DNA of 64,000 bases from an uncultured Candidatus Saccharibacteria bacterium (GCA_964600295.1 CAZRIY010000001.1:24810-88809); one strand, 5' to 3'. Numbered from the stretch's first letter, positions 6,147 through 29,391 are shown. Program-made: numbers and translations. Notes: generated by a model from the sequence alone, not told the origin.

Positions 6147-6185
6147 AAAAAATCCCTAGCACAGGATGTGCTCGGGATTTTTTGG
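6147..6185. terminator. Bidirectional intrinsic terminator-like hairpin
   Basis: ATCCCTAGCACA-GGA-TGTGCTCGGGAT stem flanked by an A-run on the 5' side and a T-run on the 3' side. Confidence 0.4.
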
Positions 6186-6607
6186 TGGAGCTGGGGGGTA
6201 TTGCACCCCCGTCCGCAAGCTAACAACCCACTCCTCTACAGGCATAGTCTGCTTGAAAGCATTTAAATCTTCACGCCTAATGTCTAAAAACAGACCAAAT
6301 AACAGTTGGCGCTAACCTTCTATATTCTCGATAAACTGCGAAGGTAACAATTTATCCAGCCGAAAATATGACACCGGGAATCCTCTATTCGGCGTTGAGG
6401 AACCGATGGCTGTATAACCCTTAGGCTACAGCTGGTGCAAACTGTTGAACGTTAAAAACGTTCGCTAGTTTTGCGAATATAGATTTGGCATCTATAAATG
6501 TCGAGCTTAATAACGCTCGGCTCAGAGCGACCTGCCAAGTAGATTGTAAAAGTACTTACGTCGAAGCTTGTCAGCCCCACAAAAAACTTTACCACATCTG
6601 TCAGCTT

Positions 6608-13754: not shown

Positions 13755-14123
13755 CGAGACTGCTGGATGATCGCTTCCGCCTTCGGGTGTGAGAGGAAAG
13801 TCCGGACAGCGTAGGGTAAGGACGGTCGCTAACGGCGACCGGGTGTGAGCCCAGGGAAAGTGCCACAGAGACTATACTAGCCCCGCCATCGGCGGGGCCA
13901 AAGGTGAAAAGTGTCGCCATAGGCGACTCCCGTGTTGGTGACAACACGTGGTGGTAAACCCCGTCCGCTGCAAGGTAGCTGGTTCATTATCTCGGAGCTA
14001 ATCTGGGAATTCTGGTACCCGCCAAGAACCGGCGATATAGAGCCGCACGAGCTCGCGCAGCAATGCGGAGCCAAGATAGATGATCATTCTTGACAGAATC
14101 CGGCTTACAGGCAGTCTCGAGCA
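13755..14123 (+). ncRNA. rnpB: RNase P RNA (bacterial type A)
   Basis: GAGGAAAGTCCGGAC P4 5' strand. ACAGAATCCGGCTTAC P4 3' strand. GGTAAACCCC...GCAAGG element. P1 pairing CGAGACTGC/GCAGTCTCG. Confidence 0.85.
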
Positions 14124-25150: not shown

Positions 25151-25227
25151 GGGTGCGTAGCTCAGTTGGCTAGAGCGCATGATTCACATTCATGAGGTCG
25201 GAGGTTCGAGTCCTCCCGTACCCACCA
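25151..25227 (+). tRNA. tRNA-Val (anticodon CAC)
   Basis: Acceptor GGGTGCG/CGTACCC; anticodon loop TTCACAT; T-loop GGTTCGAGTCC; CCA encoded. A TATATAAT -10 sits upstream. Confidence 0.85.
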
Positions 25228-25252: not shown

Positions 25253-25648
25253 TTAGTTGTTGCTACTTAACAGAGATAGTTTGATTTCCCTATCTTTTGG
25301 ACCATCTAGTTCAATCAGTACTATGCTTTGCCAGCTTCCAAGCACCACTTTGCCCTTTTCGACTGGCAAAGTTATTGAAGTACCAATCAAAGTTGATAGC
25401 AAATGGGCTGGGACGTGGGCGGGATCGTGCGAATGCCGCCAATTGATATTTGGAATCAGAGACTCCAGAAAATCGAGTAAATCTTTATCGGTGCCGGGGT
25501 CGAGCTCGGCTACTGCCATCGCACAAGTTGTATGAAGAGCGCTAATAACTACTGCACCATCTGTTTTACTGCTACTTGCAGCTCGCTGAACCTGTCCAGT
25601 AATGTCTATAATTTCCTGCGGCTGGCTGGTCTGTGCCTTAATGATCAC
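25253..25648 (-). CDS. YjbQ/UPF0047 family protein (secondary thiamine-phosphate synthase-like)
   Basis: IIDITGQV, ALHTTCA, HVPAHL motifs. Confidence 0.75.
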   Translation of the reverse strand: MIIKAQTSQPQEIIDITGQVQRAASSSKTDGAVVISALHTTCAMAVAELDPGTDKDLLDFLESLIPNINWRHSHDPAHVPAHLLSTLIGTSITLPVEKGKVVLGSWQSIVLIELDGPKDREIKLSLLSSNN

Positions 25649-25880
25649 GACTAAATAGTCTGATTGCAGTTTTGCCGGCCTGGCGGAGCAAATTAGAAAT
25701 ATAAAATGGCCTGTAGGCTTCTGTTAGTCTGGCTGTGACCTCGGCTCTAGCGATTTGATGCTGCCTCTCGCGGGCAAAACGGAAATAATCTTCCGATGAT
25801 AGCTCGCCAGCAATCCAAGCTTCTGATTCTTCTGTAGTCGGTGTCGAGTAACTAACACCAAATTCTTCCCTCTCTGCCAT
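25638..25880 (-). CDS. Hypothetical protein
   Basis: 80-aa ORF between YjbQ and tRNA-Val. Confidence 0.3.
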   Translation of the reverse strand: MAEREEFGVSYSTPTTEESEAWIAGELSSEDYFRFARERQHQIARAEVTARLTEAYRPFYISNLLRQAGKTAIRLFSRDH

Positions 25881-25882
25881 AT

Positions 25883-25959
25883 TGTTATAATACTACCTAC
25901 TCGGGCTCTTAGCTCAGTTGGCTAGAGCGCTTCCTTGACGTGGAAGAGGTCAGAGGTTC
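25883..25959 (+). tRNA. tRNA-Val (anticodon GAC)
   Basis: Acceptor GGGCTCT/AGAGCCC; anticodon loop TTGACGT; CCA encoded. Confidence 0.85.
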
Positions 25960-25998
25960 GAATCCTCTAGAGCCCACCAAAAAGGAGACCACAGAATA

Positions 25999-26193
25999 AT
26001 GAATATTATATTAGTCATCACGTTATTTGCGGCAATTTTAGCCGCTGTGATATTTGGACGCAGCGGGGGCCTTAAACGTCTGTTTGAGCTCCAGCCGGGG
26101 ATTAGGATCGCCTTATCGGTATTGATTGTTGGTGGGGCGCTTGGACTGGGAATTCTGGCTGCTTTTGCGCTGTTGGCTCTGATTCTACAATAG
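25999..26193 (+). CDS. Small hydrophobic membrane protein
   Basis: 64 aa with two TM segments. Strong AAGGAG RBS 8 nt upstream. Confidence 0.45.
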   Translation: MNIILVITLFAAILAAVIFGRSGGLKRLFELQPGIRIALSVLIVGGALGLGILAAFALLALILQ

Positions 26194-26317
26194 CCTTTAC
26201 CGCTTGTGGGGCATTTATGCCTTGACGCCATAATATATTACAGACCGATTGCACAGCTCACCGGTTCGAAACTGACATATATTTTGAAAGCTGATACACT
26301 TTTGGTACACTAATAAT

Positions 26318-26536
26318 ATGTCTACTGCTAAAACCAGAATTAACATTAGTCTACCCGATGAAGTCAAAGAAGCGCTGGTTGAACTAGCTAAGCGTGATCG
26401 TGTTCCGGCTGCTACTAAGGCTGGCAGGTTACTCGAAATTGGTCTTGAACTCGAAGAGGATTTAGTTTGGGACAAAATTGCCGCCAGACGTGATACTAAA
26501 GACGCTAACTTTTTGTCTCACGCCCAAGCTTTTTAG
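26318..26536 (+). CDS. Ribbon-helix-helix antitoxin (RelB/ParD-like)
   Basis: TRINISLPDEVKEAL... RHH motif. Lies 3 nt upstream of the RelE-like gene. Confidence 0.6.
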   Translation: MSTAKTRINISLPDEVKEALVELAKRDRVPAATKAGRLLEIGLELEEDLVWDKIAARRDTKDANFLSHAQAF

Positions 26537-26539
26537 CCG

Positions 26540-26812
26540 ATGTATGAGATCTTCTACCACGAGGGCGTAGTTAGATCGGACATCCCCAAACTAAGCAGCG
26601 AGTGGAAATCTAAAATCCAGAAAGCCATTACGGCCAAGTTAACCAGCCGACCCGAAGTTTACGGTAAGCCGTTGCGCCGTTCGTTAAAAAACTACAGAAA
26701 GTTGCGGGTGGGTGATTATCGGGTAATTTTCCGCATCGAAGGTAAGGCGGTCAAAGTCTTTATTATTCAGCACCGGTCGGTCGTGTATTCATCTGCTCGT
26801 AATCGTATCTAG
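26540..26812 (+). CDS. RelE/ParE-family type II toxin
   Basis: KLRVGDYRVIFRIE..IQHRSVVY, typical of RelE/StbE. Confidence 0.7.
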   Translation: MYEIFYHEGVVRSDIPKLSSEWKSKIQKAITAKLTSRPEVYGKPLRRSLKNYRKLRVGDYRVIFRIEGKAVKVFIIQHRSVVYSSARNRI

Positions 26813-26903
26813 GTTTATTATTTTCAGATTTACTTACCTTAACCCATAGCTCTAAGGAAGAGCGTGGCTACCACGTTTGTATTGTAGACAATTCGCATGA
26901 GTT

Positions 26904-27146
26904 CTAACGCCTTTTAGCTCGACTCACTTCTTTGCCGGCTCGTACGCAGTCCTCATCTGAAACTAGACCAGCTTGCTCGACTATGGCACTGAGTTCGTCA
27001 GCTCCTGCTGCCAGAGCATCCCAGGCTTCAGTGTCTTGGGTGCGCAAGCGGCTAACCACCGCTTGGCGGATGTATTCACTGCGGATGCCATATTGATCCT
27101 TAGCAGCTCTATCTATTTTCTTTACTAATTCCTTGGGGGTTGCCAT
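26904..27146 (-). CDS. Ribbon-helix-helix (CopG/Arc-like) DNA-binding protein
   Basis: SEYIRQAVVSRL RHH signature. Confidence 0.45.
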   Translation of the reverse strand: MATPKELVKKIDRAAKDQYGIRSEYIRQAVVSRLRTQDTEAWDALAAGADELSAIVEQAGLVSDEDCVRAGKEVSRAKRR

Positions 27147-27213
27147 ATAAATCCTACATTAATCGTATGTAAGTTTTGCATGCTCTGGTCGCTTATGGCT
27201 CAATGAGTAATTC

Positions 27214-28062
27214 TCAAGCCTCTTCCCAAATCTGCCCCAGAGCTCCATGCTCTTTCAGCTTCTCTGTTGTCGTAAATCGCATATGTGGCCTGTCTTCGTC
27301 GTCTCGTTCCCAGATGTCTGCTATCAGTCCTCTGGTTCGGCGCTTGGCATAAATCAGGTCAGTGGTGGTTGGACAAATCAACAAGATGATCGGTACCGGG
27401 TCGCCATAGGTTTCGCTCTCCCATTCGTCCATTTCTTCATCTAAATATTCAACATATTTCTTCAGCCTATAGCGCAATCGGTAACGTGGTAGGGTGGCAT
27501 CAAACACCTCCAACAGATAACTTTCAACAGCGTGCGGTTCGCCCAGACCATCGTACTGCTCTTTGGAAAAACACAGGTGCGGATGAATCAGCTCATTGTC
27601 GCTCAAAAAGTGGTAGTAGCTATCACTCAAGTAGTCGGCTTCAGTTTCGTAGAAATACCAGGTTTGGGGATACCCACTCTCATCGCTACCATCTTCAAGA
27701 CTAATGCAAGAATCTGCAATCAGCAGACAGCGATCTATAAAGCTTTGGCTGCGCTCATGTTCTCGGTATCGCTTGCGGATTTCTCCGGCTGGATGGGAAT
27801 CTCTATTCTGCAGCTGCCGTATGCCGTTAATACCTAGATAGTAGATGGCTGGCTTGGTCTTCTCGGCAAAGTGGTCCGGATTGTAGATCCAATTGATATA
27901 CGCCTTGGCTCGTAGGTCTCTTAGCCATAGGTTAATAGTCTTTTTATCTTTATGCTTTAGTATTGTCTGTATTTGTATTCTAATTAAGAATCTATGGGTA
28001 TATAGAAGATCAAGTATCTCTCTTTGTTTCCCGGTTATTTTTGGCGCTTGTTGTAGTTTCAT
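27214..28062 (-). CDS. Replication-relaxation family protein (associated with plasmids and integrative elements)
   Basis: N-terminal ..ITGKQREILDLLYTHRFLIRIQIQ.., the family's wHTH signature. Sits in AT-rich DNA. Confidence 0.45.
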   Translation of the reverse strand: MKLQQAPKITGKQREILDLLYTHRFLIRIQIQTILKHKDKKTINLWLRDLRAKAYINWIYNPDHFAEKTKPAIYYLGINGIRQLQNRDSHPAGEIRKRYREHERSQSFIDRCLLIADSCISLEDGSDESGYPQTWYFYETEADYLSDSYYHFLSDNELIHPHLCFSKEQYDGLGEPHAVESYLLEVFDATLPRYRLRYRLKKYVEYLDEEMDEWESETYGDPVPIILLICPTTTDLIYAKRRTRGLIADIWERDDEDRPHMRFTTTEKLKEHGALGQIWEEA

Positions 28063-28205
28063 TTTGCCAAACCCTCCTACTCCCTATATGTATAAAGGTA
28101 GGTACCACTATAGCTGGAAAATAACAGATTGGCACAAGCGCAATCCTGCCCTCGCCCGTGGGGGCAGAAATAATCGAGCTTTTTTACTCGTGCGGTTGGC
28201 AAGCT

Positions 28206-28269
28206 ATTGAACCATTATGTAGGTTGAAAGTGTCTAAGATGTATGGTGGCTAAATATTGAACCATTACG
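28206..28269. repeat. Two 17-bp direct repeats (ATTGAACCATTAYGT), iteron- or operator-like
   Basis: CTATTGAACCATTATGT at 28206 and ATATTGAACCATTACGT at 28253, upstream of the replication-relaxation gene. Confidence 0.4.
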
Positions 28270-28342
28270 TTCCGTTTGACATAATAGATACTTCCTGCTA
28301 AAGTAATCTGGTTTCCGTGAGGAAAGGAGGTACTTTTAGCTT

Positions 28343-28483
28343 ATGGCTAATAGTCCACAACTGGAAACCTATAAGCTCTTTTATGAGCAGCTTCCAGTCA
28401 TCAAGCCGGCAATAAAAAAGTCGGTTCGCAAGAGCCGATTCCCGCAAGCCGGCCGCAGTCTGCTGGAAACTCCAGCTAAATAG
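28343..28483 (+). CDS. Hypothetical 46-aa protein (below the ORF-track size cutoff)
   Basis: AAAGGAGG RBS 9 nt upstream of the ATG (MANSPQLETYKLFYEQLPVIKPAIKKSVRKSRFPQAGRSLLETPAK). A strong terminator follows. Confidence 0.35.
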   Translation: MANSPQLETYKLFYEQLPVIKPAIKKSVRKSRFPQAGRSLLETPAK

Positions 28484-28494
28484 GCAGACAACAA

Positions 28495-28530
28495 ACCAGA
28501 GGAGCCCCGACATAGTTTCGGGGCTCTTTT
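28495..28530 (+). terminator. Intrinsic terminator
   Basis: GAGCCCCGA-catagtt-TCGGGGCTC followed by TTTTAT. Confidence 0.5.
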
Positions 28531-28623
28531 ATATACCGCTAGCAGTATGGAAGACTGCTAGGCGTTTAACACTGGCAGACGAAGTATGTACGGCCCAAAA
28601 AGGCGTAGCCTATATTTGGGAGC

Positions 28624-29391
28624 TTACTTATCTTCTGCCGGCTGCTTGGCTTCTTTAGCTGATTCTGCGGGCGGTTTGCCGTCTTTGGCCGGTTCGCCAG
28701 TCTGTTTGTCGCCCTTACTATCGTCCGTCTTATCATCGTCTGTAGCGTCATCAGCCGCACCACCTTTTTCGGCTTCTACTTGGGCTACCAATTCTTCCTC
28801 AGACACCTCAATCTCGGGTTCTTCTTCCTCTTCGCGCTCCGCCTCGGTTTTGGCTACTAGCTGGTCTGGGTCGTTAAGGACTGTCACGCCGGATGGGATA
28901 TTAAGATCACCGACCGTAATCTCTTGACCAACTTCTTCGAGGCCGTTCAAATCAACCGTAATGTTCTCTGGCAAATCCTTGGGCAAGGCCTCTATCTCGA
29001 CTGATTCTAGGGGCTGCAGCAGCATGGCATTGAGGTTATAAACCGCCGGTGCTTCACCCTCAAAGTGGAGCGGCACCTCGGTTTTGATTTTTTCATCCAT
29101 GCGTACGGTGTAAAAATCAAAATGGAGAATTTTATCGGTTATCGGATCTAGTTGAACATCGTGAAATAGTACGTTCTTGGGCTTGTCTTCGCCTTCGATA
29201 TTGAGTTCAACTAGTTTAGAGGTACCGGCTTGATGATAGGCCTTGTCCAACGCTCGCTCGTCCGCCTGAATAGAAGTAGCATCTTTACCCTGGCCATATA
29301 CCACGCCAGGCACTAGCCCCTGGCTGCGCACCGCCTTAAGCGCTTTGCCGTAGAGTTGGCGCTTGCTAGTTTTTAGTACAACCTCTTGCAT
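28624..29391 (-). CDS. rplY: Ribosomal protein L25 / general stress protein Ctc, with an acidic C-terminal tail
   Basis: L25/Ctc beta-barrel domains plus an E/D/K-rich extension. Confidence 0.85.
   Translation of the reverse strand: MQEVVLKTSKRQLYGKALKAVRSQGLVPGVVYGQGKDATSIQADERALDKAYHQAGTSKLVELNIEGEDKPKNVLFHDVQLDPITDKILHFDFYTVRMDEKIKTEVPLHFEGEAPAVYNLNAMLLQPLESVEIEALPKDLPENITVDLNGLEEVGQEITVGDLNIPSGVTVLNDPDQLVAKTEAEREEEEEPEIEVSEEELVAQVEAEKGGAADDATDDDKTDDSKGDKQTGEPAKDGKPPAESAKEAKQPAEDK

Follow-up and report, generated by a model that had tools for sequence, protein, structure and literature searches.

A Replic_Relax gene with a conserved 125-nt module in a probable IS1595-family transposon remnant of an uncultured Saccharibacteria bacterium

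This study concerns a 64,000-nt stretch of DNA from an uncultured Candidatus Saccharibacteria bacterium (GCA_964600295.1, CAZRIY010000001.1:24810-88809), hereafter the window, and within it an islet that separates the genes for tRNA-Val(GAC) and ribosomal protein L25 (rplY). The islet holds a toxin-antitoxin pair and, on the opposite strand, an 80-aa gene and a gene for a protein of the Replic_Relax family (RR), which is preceded by a conserved 125-nt module (Table 1). Comparison with related loci leads us to conclude that the segment from 26210 to ~28174 is very probably the remnant of a cargo-carrying transposon, of an IS1595-family type found widely in Saccharibacteria, that has lost its transposase and can no longer move. 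In itself, the window copy is an ordinary dead transposon with a toxin-antitoxin pair.

The islet and the window copy of the transposon

A first-pass annotation, made from the sequence alone, had named a replication-relaxation family protein, a RelB/RelE pair and a CopG-like ribbon-helix-helix (RHH) protein in the islet. The first of these is confirmed. The Pfam match of RR lies above the curated threshold and aligns residues 17-208 with profile positions 1-177 of 191, and the protein combines the N-terminal MarR-like winged helix and C-terminal PD-(D/E)XK restriction-endonuclease-like domain of the family. The toxin-antitoxin pair is confirmed as well. A gene for a RelE/ParE-fold toxin follows a gene for a small DNA-binding antitoxin on the same strand, with a gap of 3 nt from antitoxin stop to toxin start, which is the arrangement of type II (RelBE/ParDE) modules. 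The toxin call is solid, with further matches to PHROG 1213 (RelE-like, E=2.9e-14) and to NCBIfam RelE_StbE (E=7e-4, under the cut-off). As in other modules of the RelBE/ParDE superfamily, an RHH antitoxin gene sits just 5' of the toxin gene; the pair shows nothing unusual, serves as cargo, and is not seen in the other 97 RR-bearing loci described below. For the 80-aa gene, which lies 67 bp downstream of RR on the same strand, only part of the earlier description stands. The gene is there, but the family call is weaker, as its matches to NCBIfam aCcr1 (1e-4) and VapB (2e-3) and to a CopG-like PHROG (7e-3) are all sub-threshold and there is no Pfam match. PADLOC returned no defence-system match for any islet protein.

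The first-pass annotation had also read the islet as an old, trimmed mobile element with neither integrase nor att duplicate, and this holds: the DNA is missing from a relative, and one IS1595-type end has been kept. The relative, L019, carries the closest homologue of the window's threonyl-tRNA synthetase (ThrRS) among 5.8 billion proteins searched, and even this is only 67% identical. Its gene order runs MraY-like, rplY, 151 bp, tRNA-Val(GAC), YjbQ, tRNA-Val(CAC) and ThrRS. Because L019 holds 151 bp between tRNA-Val(GAC) and rplY where the window holds 2,644 bp, the islet is extra DNA. Further comparisons draw on 97 loci that carry RR, 17 from genomes and 80 from metagenomes, and on loci that do not (L019-L022). 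Conserved synteny combined with host-like composition had been named as evidence that would speak against a mobile element; synteny of the islet genes is absent in the relatives. Indeed, none of the islet's other genes accompanies RR in any of the 97 loci, except for two weak homologues of the 80-aa protein in L078 (45%) and L087 (43%), which lie outside the elements there.

The terminal inverted repeat at 26210 is identical at 21 of 23 positions to GGCAATTATCCCTTGACGCCATA, the transposase-side end of the elements at L002, L018, L024, L031, L058 and L061; the ends of L003 and L006 differ from GGCAATTATCCCTTGACGCCATA at one base. No match to the end with three or fewer mismatches occurred in any of 100 shuffles of the window. 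With blastn, 26210-26235 matches the region just 5' of the transposase gene in several loci, and inverted copies are found there kilobases away, beyond RR. The geometry is that of intact elements, since the repeat lies 3' of RR, on the other strand, and points inward. The toxin-antitoxin pair and the 80-aa gene lie between this end and RR, which is where cargo sits.

On the other side of the segment, blastn homology covers the RR gene and about 105-110 nt upstream of it. It stops at the RR stop codon and, at the opposite limit, ~8 nt beyond hairpin 1 of the module, ending at 28164-28174 in 17 of 17 genome loci. That homology to all relatives stops at ~28174 marks this position as the truncation point. 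Searches of the window with 12 transposases (tblastn) gave nothing below E=0.29 and nothing in the locus, and neither tblastn nor tblastx detected a transposase remnant in 28175-28623. None of seven different end sequences revealed a second transposon end in the window, and the flanking 8-mer GCTTGTGG is not repeated in 28063-28800. Therefore, with no transposase, no second end and no duplication, the window copy is a remnant and not a member of the family. Limited to a single end and lacking a transposase, it would be unable to move. The proposed course of events is that the transposase and the other end were lost, so that unrelated DNA would begin beyond ~28174, and that the 26210 end, the cargo, an intact RR and a complete module were kept; stabilisation of the element would fall to the toxin-antitoxin pair. 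Decay of this kind, in which RR is kept, appears to recur. The closest RR to that of the window (78% identical, L104:10001-10852) stands solo between ruvC/yebC and rimK genes, in a ruvA/ruvC/rimK setting, and a single end-like sequence, GAGACTATCCCTTGAGCTCAAGG, is left there, ~35 nt from its module at L104:9843-9868. Judged by eye, this sequence resembles the ends of L026 and L054 (GACTATCCCTTGA...). No housekeeping gene is shared between the window and the 20 kb of L104 that were compared.

Several observations weigh against this account of the window copy. L019 is a distant relative (rplY 47% and MraY-like protein 57% identical), and therefore insertion in the window and loss in L019 cannot be timed. 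Two further segments, 28175-28623 (450 bp) and 25980-26209 (230 bp), are likewise missing from L019 and are left unexplained by the remnant. The islet had been described as AT-rich, which is not really confirmed: its GC content is 0.456 over 25980-28623 compared with 0.491 ± 0.026 in same-size windows, 10.6% of which are lower, and its tetranucleotide distance ranks an unremarkable 11th of 48. Neither measure singles the islet out; its composition is host-like, and the compositional argument for a mobile element is weak. The boundary of the element in the window rests on one 23-nt repeat, with no duplication and no trace of a transposase. Finally, this repeat has TTGAC and resembles the transposase-side end more than the cargo-side end of the closest clade, which makes the original architecture ambiguous: the transposase may have preceded RR or, like that of L026, L034 and L054, have been convergent with it. 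With an upstream transposase one contiguous loss would suffice, whereas a convergent one would call for two.

Table 1. Features in and around the islet, with positions counted from the first nucleotide of the window
Feature	Position	Strand	Evidence and remarks
tRNA-Val(CAC)	25151-25227		ARAGORN and Rfam
tRNA-Val(GAC)	25903-25979	+	ARAGORN and Rfam; flank, outside the element
64-aa open reading frame (ORF)	25999-26193	+	ORF list; directly after tRNA-Val(GAC), outside the element; two hydrophobic stretches (by eye), good ribosome-binding site
Terminal inverted repeat GGCATTTATGCCTTGACGCCATA	26210-26232	+	IS1595-type end, reads inward to RR; only element end left
RHH antitoxin, 72 aa	26318-26536	+	Pfam RHH_5 E=1.5e-5, 25.1 bits (cut-off 26); RHH_1 E=5.5e-3
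RelE/ParE-superfamily toxin, 90 aa	26540-26812	+	Pfam ParE_toxin PF05016 E=5.6e-7, 30.5 bits (cut-off 23)
Probable RHH protein, 80 aa	26904-27146	-	Three sub-threshold RHH-type matches, residues 4-38; cargo
RR, Replic_Relax protein, 282 aa	27214-28062	-	PF13814 E=4.4e-12, 46.9 bits (cut-off 25.3)
Whole module, 125 nt	28053-28177	-	Covariance-model match, 133 bits; outer edge ~28174
Hairpin 2, 5'-leader stem-loop	28076-28102	-	Fold -12.9 kcal/mol; 3' arm holds first bases of Shine-Dalgarno GUAGGAGG
Promoter-like GTGCCA-17-TATAGT, with conserved box GCTTGTG(T/C)CAATCTGTTA	28107-28135	-	Consensus scan
Hairpin 1 (palindrome) TGCCCCC-ACGGGC-GAGGGCA	28144-28169	-	Single match in the window
Two direct repeats TGGCnAnnTATTGAACCATTAyGT	28197-28220, 28247-28270	+	Outside the conserved block
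Orphan transcription unit	28276-28531	+	TTGACA-17-(TG)cTAAAGT promoter-like site, near-consensus; not demonstrably part of the element
46-codon ORF	28343-28483	+	AGGAGG at 28325-28330, 12 nt upstream
Terminator	28502-28531	+	Strong hairpin 28502-28526 and T-run
rplY/ctc (ribosomal protein L25)	28624-29391	-	ORF; flank; syntenic homologue in L019 with Pfam Ribosomal_L25p, 47% identical

The transposon family in related loci

In the clustering of ORFs that flank RR, the dominant neighbour is an IS1595-family transposase. It lies within 5 kb of RR in 45 of the 97 loci and is directly upstream on the same strand in 40. Its domains are matched by DDE_Tnp_IS1595 (PF12762, E=1e-37 and 2e-30), Zn_ribbon_IS1595 (PF12760, 1.6e-8) and NF033547 (1.6e-52). 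An earlier search for inverted repeats, which covered only 350 nt downstream of RR, had found nothing; a systematic search of the whole downstream flank reveals terminal inverted repeats in most transposase-bearing loci. Thirteen elements are complete (L003, L006, L009, L012, L013, L014, L015, L018, L057, L061, L073, L078 and L100). They measure 2,983-6,714 bp. Inside one end lie the transposase, module, RR and cargo, in that order, followed by the other end; of the first 25-30 end positions, 19-29 are identical. Most of the end alignments score far above shuffled sequence (for example, 59 against a maximum of 26); the few that do not rest on the matching 8-bp duplication. Perfect 8-bp target duplications flank all 13 elements with both ends on the contig. 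The related loci thus present the DDE transposase with zinc ribbon, the terminal inverted repeats and the 8-bp duplication of the IS1595 family. In the intact elements, the IS1595 DDE transposase would recognise the terminal repeats, as expected from its family, and its insertions would leave the 8-bp duplications.

The arrangement is not uniform. Five loci have the transposase downstream of RR on the opposite strand, and in three of these (L026, L034 and L054) an end-like repeat by the module is consistent with an element in which module, RR, cargo and reversed transposase succeed one another between two ends. In 14 of the 97 loci, RR is adjoined divergently by a large serine recombinase (Resolvase and Zn_ribbon_recom domains). 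These loci include L040, L052, L056, L062, L064, L088, L090, L097 and L102, with an Xre-type helix-turn-helix gene between the two in at least three of the 14 (L040, L056 and L062). They look like a second kind of RR-bearing integrative element.

Cargo in the intact elements is diverse. It includes MazEF; a set of AraC regulator, epoxide hydrolase and AlkZ-like glycosylase; an HD, Schlafen and RadC set; and complete diversity-generating retroelements with reverse transcriptase, bAvd and target genes. In the 5.6-kb element at L078:3576-9215 (ends 22/25 identical, duplication AAATTTAT), the cargo consists of a single gene, for a 1,029-aa class I aminoacyl-tRNA synthetase (tRNA-synt_1 and Anticodon_1). 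The complete retroelements of L014:3783-9345 and L009:49-6303 lie inside elements with 8-bp duplications, whose ends are identical at 28/28 and 20/30 positions, respectively, and their location within duplicated targets indicates that diversity-generating retroelements are being moved as transposon cargo in Saccharibacteria. Perfect repeats together with duplications, as in L014, further indicate that RR elements have been mobile recently.

The data also bear on how the parts of the element evolve. Mean pairwise identity is 62% for RR and 44% for the adjacent transposase, and one RR clade of 87-90% identity adjoins transposases from clades that share just 30-38% identity, a contrast found even inside a single metagenome-assembled genome (MAG). 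Other clades of RR adjoin serine recombinases. Two MAGs contain two RR copies each, L008/L012 in CALCZR01 and L005/L016 in JAGQMZ01. The L008/L012 copies of RR are 89% identical and the adjacent transposases only 30%, a mismatch that points to module swapping or to gene conversion of RR only. Transposase and RR co-diverge only moderately (r=0.40). Given this value and the clear module swapping, a single, vertically inherited transposase-RR operon was rejected. The family consists of transposons that have moved as units, in which RR and the module are the constant core and the integration enzyme is exchangeable.

The ISfinder IS1595 '+' subgroups (ISPna2+ and ISNwi1+) have the same transposase family, ends and 8-bp duplication, and carry passenger genes 3' of the transposase. 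To our knowledge, no described IS1595 '+' subgroup has a fixed Replic_Relax second gene with a cis module. Among the papers listed for IS1595 in combination with Patescibacteria, Saccharibacteria or candidate phyla radiation, none contained IS1595, and the combination of transposase, module, Replic_Relax gene and cargo appears to be undescribed in the literature searched. The closest described parallels are MTnSag1 of Streptococcus agalactiae (tISSag10) and tISCpe8 of Clostridium perfringens, IS1595-type mobilizable elements with 25-bp inverted repeats and 8-bp duplications (PMC5704250). These share with the Saccharibacteria family the IS1595 DDE transposase, terminal repeats of ~25 bp, 8-bp duplications, passenger genes, low target specificity and the presence of several copies per genome. 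They differ in that they are 1.7-2.0 kb long and have one resistance gene, no relaxase and an origin of transfer (oriT) inside the cargo gene (PMC5704250), whereas the Saccharibacteria elements are 3-6.7 kb long, carry diverse cargo, and have RR with a dedicated 125-nt module in the 13 complete elements and in nearly all RR loci; the window copy differs further in having no transposase. The 14 loci with a divergent recombinase show the one-end layout typical of Tn4451-type serine-recombinase mobilizable elements (PMC5704250); the window has no recombinase.

These results define a recently active Saccharibacteria transposon family by its ends, its 8-bp duplications, its 3-6.7 kb size with exchangeable cargo and its fixed second gene with a cis element. 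They provide a concrete route for the movement of accessory genes, whole diversity-generating retroelements included, in a phylum whose mobile elements have been little mapped. As a native transposon whose ends are known, the family also offers a possible genetic tool for bacteria that are hard to manipulate.

The conserved module and the role of RR

In the alignment of upstream regions, hairpin 1 of the module has the form TGCCCyC-loop-GrGGGCA. It is followed by a promoter-like stretch whose box varies from clade to clade, being GCTTGTGTCAATCTGTTA in the close one, by hairpin 2 (CCTACC...GGTGTAGG) and by the invariant GTAGGAGGGTTTGGCA. The promoter-like box is kept in the close clade, and CTCATGGTTTAAC... 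stands in its place in distant clades. A covariance model detects the module in 88 related loci in addition to the window, always just 5' of RR and on the RR strand, and does not detect it in the non-RR loci or in the rest of the window. The sole other matches are two weak antisense ones, next to the L004 and L034 modules (E about 3e-3). Five of the eight pairs of hairpin 1 show compensatory changes, with 36 double-changed cells compared with 14.6 ± 2.7 in shuffles (none of 500 as high), and the loop varies from 4 to 8 nt across loci. The compensatory changes and the tolerance in loop length favour an extruded hairpin over a dimer site of fixed spacing. In hairpin 2, 98% of cells are paired in 83 distinct sequences. 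The only variation is C to U or U to C opposite G, which makes this hairpin specific to the sense strand. The whole module is more than a ribosome-binding site, since in distant clades it lies 80-165 nt 5' of the start codon, beyond a G-poor spacer. The spacer, between GTAGGAGGGTTTGGCA and the RR start in L036, L045, L049-L052, L054, L062, L064 and L071, is also A-rich, and the start codons that follow it have no Shine-Dalgarno sequence. Rfam has no match at E<=1 on either strand of 25950-28700, which includes the module and the 46-codon region.

RR homologues number 813 among clusters at 90% identity, and the 120 matches listed are 59-78% identical; a profile search collects 982 representatives at 50% identity. 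The named sources of the listed RR and ThrRS homologues are all Saccharibacteria or Patescibacteria. No relatives of solved structure were found by sequence. The best RR match of the window copy is, at 78%, more similar than its ThrRS (67%) or other host comparisons (57%, 50% and 47%). As an argument for horizontal transfer this excess was left as a hint, since RR does not exceed its neighbours in conservation at loci where these are truly syntenic.

RR is most likely a site-specific DNA-binding protein that acts on the module beside its own gene. Our preferred reading, by analogy, is that RR would autoregulate and/or nick at the module and in this way would provide the transfer or replication function of an integrative mobilizable element. 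We favour this because RR pairs with two unrelated integration enzymes, and a constant DNA-binding nuclease-fold protein with a private cis element and exchangeable integration and cargo functions would match the layout of such elements. PF13814 comprises the MOBC relaxases, TraX and MobC included (PMC5357655), and RR resembles TraX of pAD1 and MobC of CloDF13 in its Pfam family match, its winged helix and PD-(D/E)XK fold, its length of about 260-280 aa and the inverted-repeat-containing cis region 5' of the gene (PMC5357655, PMC12857230, PMC6736028). It differs in having no BLAST-level similarity to the plasmid members and no coupling-protein gene nearby, and the direct repeats bound by TraX have no conserved counterpart.

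The catalytic residues argue against a nicking role. The catalytic triad of TraX is the 'DEE' motif D..ExE (PMC6736028), and the window RR lacks this acidic triad. Residue 162, the position of the canonical catalytic Asp, is His in the window, and 36 of 47 members of the close clade have a residue other than Asp there (N16/H15/D11/Q5); among 63 diverse members of the whole family, D occupies position 162 in 42 and E position 185 in 36. The third catalytic position (187) is hydrophobic throughout the RR family. With the TraX-like pTEF1 protein, hhalign yields a weak alignment (E=7e-4, probability of 26%), and the motif correspondence in it, D..ExE with H162, E185 and F187 of the window RR, is of low confidence. 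On the other hand, the close clade newly fixes E139, E141 and D188, and the conserved acids E139, E141, D143 and D188 could substitute for the lost triad residues.

A more specific version of the preferred reading is that RR and the 125-nt module are the relaxase and oriT of unrecognised Saccharibacteria integrative mobilizable elements, which would integrate through the IS1595 transposase or the serine recombinase and ride a type IV secretion system, carrying their cargo between ultrasmall epibionts. The window would then be a stranded copy with RR and the module still intact. In the literature, type IV secretion systems are ubiquitous in Patescibacteria, essential in one species and usually without a relaxase, and MOBC is the commonest family among the few relaxase matches; for the systems of Saccharibacteria, relaxases are reported to be lacking. 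That these systems are relaxase-poor makes this version worth testing, yet is no evidence for it, and we consider it speculative and rather unlikely. If it is true, cargo that includes retroelements, toxin-antitoxin pairs and an aminoacyl-tRNA synthetase would be shuttled between epibionts. RR and the module are in any case a candidate for the open question of whether the Patescibacteria type IV system moves DNA, and with which relaxase.

A purely regulatory RR is a serious alternative to the preferred reading, since the catalytic motif is degraded and solo copies exist. In its fullest form, RR and the module would have been domesticated, and RR would be a winged-helix regulator with a catalytically dead nuclease domain and a cellular function, the transposon being only its origin. 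Consistent with this, RR is intact without a transposase among housekeeping genes in the window, after yidC-jag in L007/L010 and between ruvC and rimK in L104. It is under strong constraint, whether mean identity is set against that of the transposase or the best match against ThrRS, and the catalytic Asp is replaced in most of the close clade. Steczkiewicz et al. (2012), who placed Replic_Relax in the PD-(D/E)XK superfamily, called the family a predicted transcriptional regulator. However, the nuclease domain is as conserved as the winged helix and has the newly fixed acids described above, which is unusual for a dead domain, and RR is still carried by recently mobile elements such as that of L014. 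We therefore hold domestication to be possible, though doubtful; it concerns only the present role of RR and is compatible with the window copy being a remnant. TnsA of Tn7 has a restriction-endonuclease fold plus a winged-helix-type domain, and RR might similarly be an accessory nuclease of the DDE transposase that cuts the second strand at the element ends. In 40 loci a protein of this fold is indeed encoded next to a DDE transposase and in the same orientation. This role is nevertheless improbable, because RR also occurs with serine recombinases and solo, one RR clade sits beside widely divergent transposases even in the L008/L012 MAG, the cis element that tracks RR is internal and not at the element ends, and the catalytic motif is incomplete.

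Two other origins of the islet, both raised by the first-pass annotation, fare poorly. One is a tRNA-targeted genomic island or integrative element: a tyrosine or serine integrase would have inserted it at the 3' end of tRNA-Val(GAC), and the integrase and the att repeat would since have disappeared. Although the extra DNA starts right after the tRNA and a large serine recombinase stands beside RR in 14 related loci, the islet has no integrase ORF, and no repeat of the tRNA 3' end was found in 26000-28700 (the best alignments score 18 and 23; shuffled sequence averages 18 and reaches 23). A T-arm-like 13/16 match at 26255-26270, considered as an att site, is at chance level. The recognisable element end lies 230 bp from the tRNA, and intact close-clade relatives insert at many unrelated sites with 8-bp duplications, all of which renders such an island very improbable. 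The other is a plasmid-derived replication or mobilization module, with relaxase, RHH accessory protein, iterons or oriT and addiction module, integrated in the chromosome. The plasmid relaxases TraX and MobC do belong to PF13814; the direct repeats bound by TraX lie 70-120 bp from nic, and the accessory proteins of relaxosomes are generally of the RHH type (PMC12857230). In the window, two direct repeats stand 30-125 bp from hairpin 1, and RR is followed by an RHH gene. But neither the repeats nor the RHH gene is conserved beside RR in any of the 97 loci, and the transposase gene occupies the position of the repeats in intact elements. Moreover, a tblastn search of 72,556 plasmids and 50,697 phages gave no match to RR at E<=0.01, and its listed named homologues are all from Saccharibacteria or Patescibacteria, many of them on contigs of 0.2-1.0 Mb. 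We give a plasmid origin very little credence.

Direct repeats, orphan unit and flanking features

Between the truncation point and rplY lie the direct repeats and the orphan transcription unit. The first-pass annotation had noted 17-bp repeats 47 bp apart and called them iteron-like. The repeats are real, but their spacing was mis-measured. The exact core, TATTGAACCATTAYGT, occupies 28205-28220 and 28255-28270, extends to 24 nt at 83% identity and recurs at 50 bp start to start, 143-208 bp 5' of the RR start codon. Iterons are three or more phased repeats that adjoin, and are conserved with, the initiator gene. Here there are only two copies, which lie outside the block shared with the 97 loci, where intact elements have their transposase gene. 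The core has no match in the 22 loci compared, and no exact repeat of at least 11 nt is found in the equivalent position in 80 related loci. The repeats were also considered as operators of the family and rejected because they are not conserved; a 5-nt core, TCAAT, which by eye they share with the promoter box, is too short to count.

The 46-aa ORF of the orphan unit does have the ribosome-binding site and terminator ascribed to it. Its only match among 5.8 billion proteins is itself, and with no homologue it was rejected as a conserved protein; the unit as a whole has no similarity to any related locus. The 194-nt segment 28305-28498, which includes the ORF, folds unusually well (z-scores of -5.0 for the + strand and -3.9 for the - strand); a structured RNA is a possible alternative to a small protein here. 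At the other end of the islet, the 64-aa ORF has no family match and is not found in L019 or any related locus, and is likewise lineage-specific.

Further from the element, tRNA-Val(CAC) is inverted relative to its orientation in L019. An 80-aa ORF at 25638-25880, distinct from the cargo gene of the same length and not found in L019, overlaps the start of yjbQ and has a weak VbhA-antitoxin match (E=0.014). Elsewhere, the window contains a transfer-messenger RNA (tag AKSIFAKLANVFNVQQFAPAVA) at 6183-6578 (-) and a class A RNase P RNA at 13755-14123 (+), ordinary housekeeping RNAs that fit a chromosomal context.

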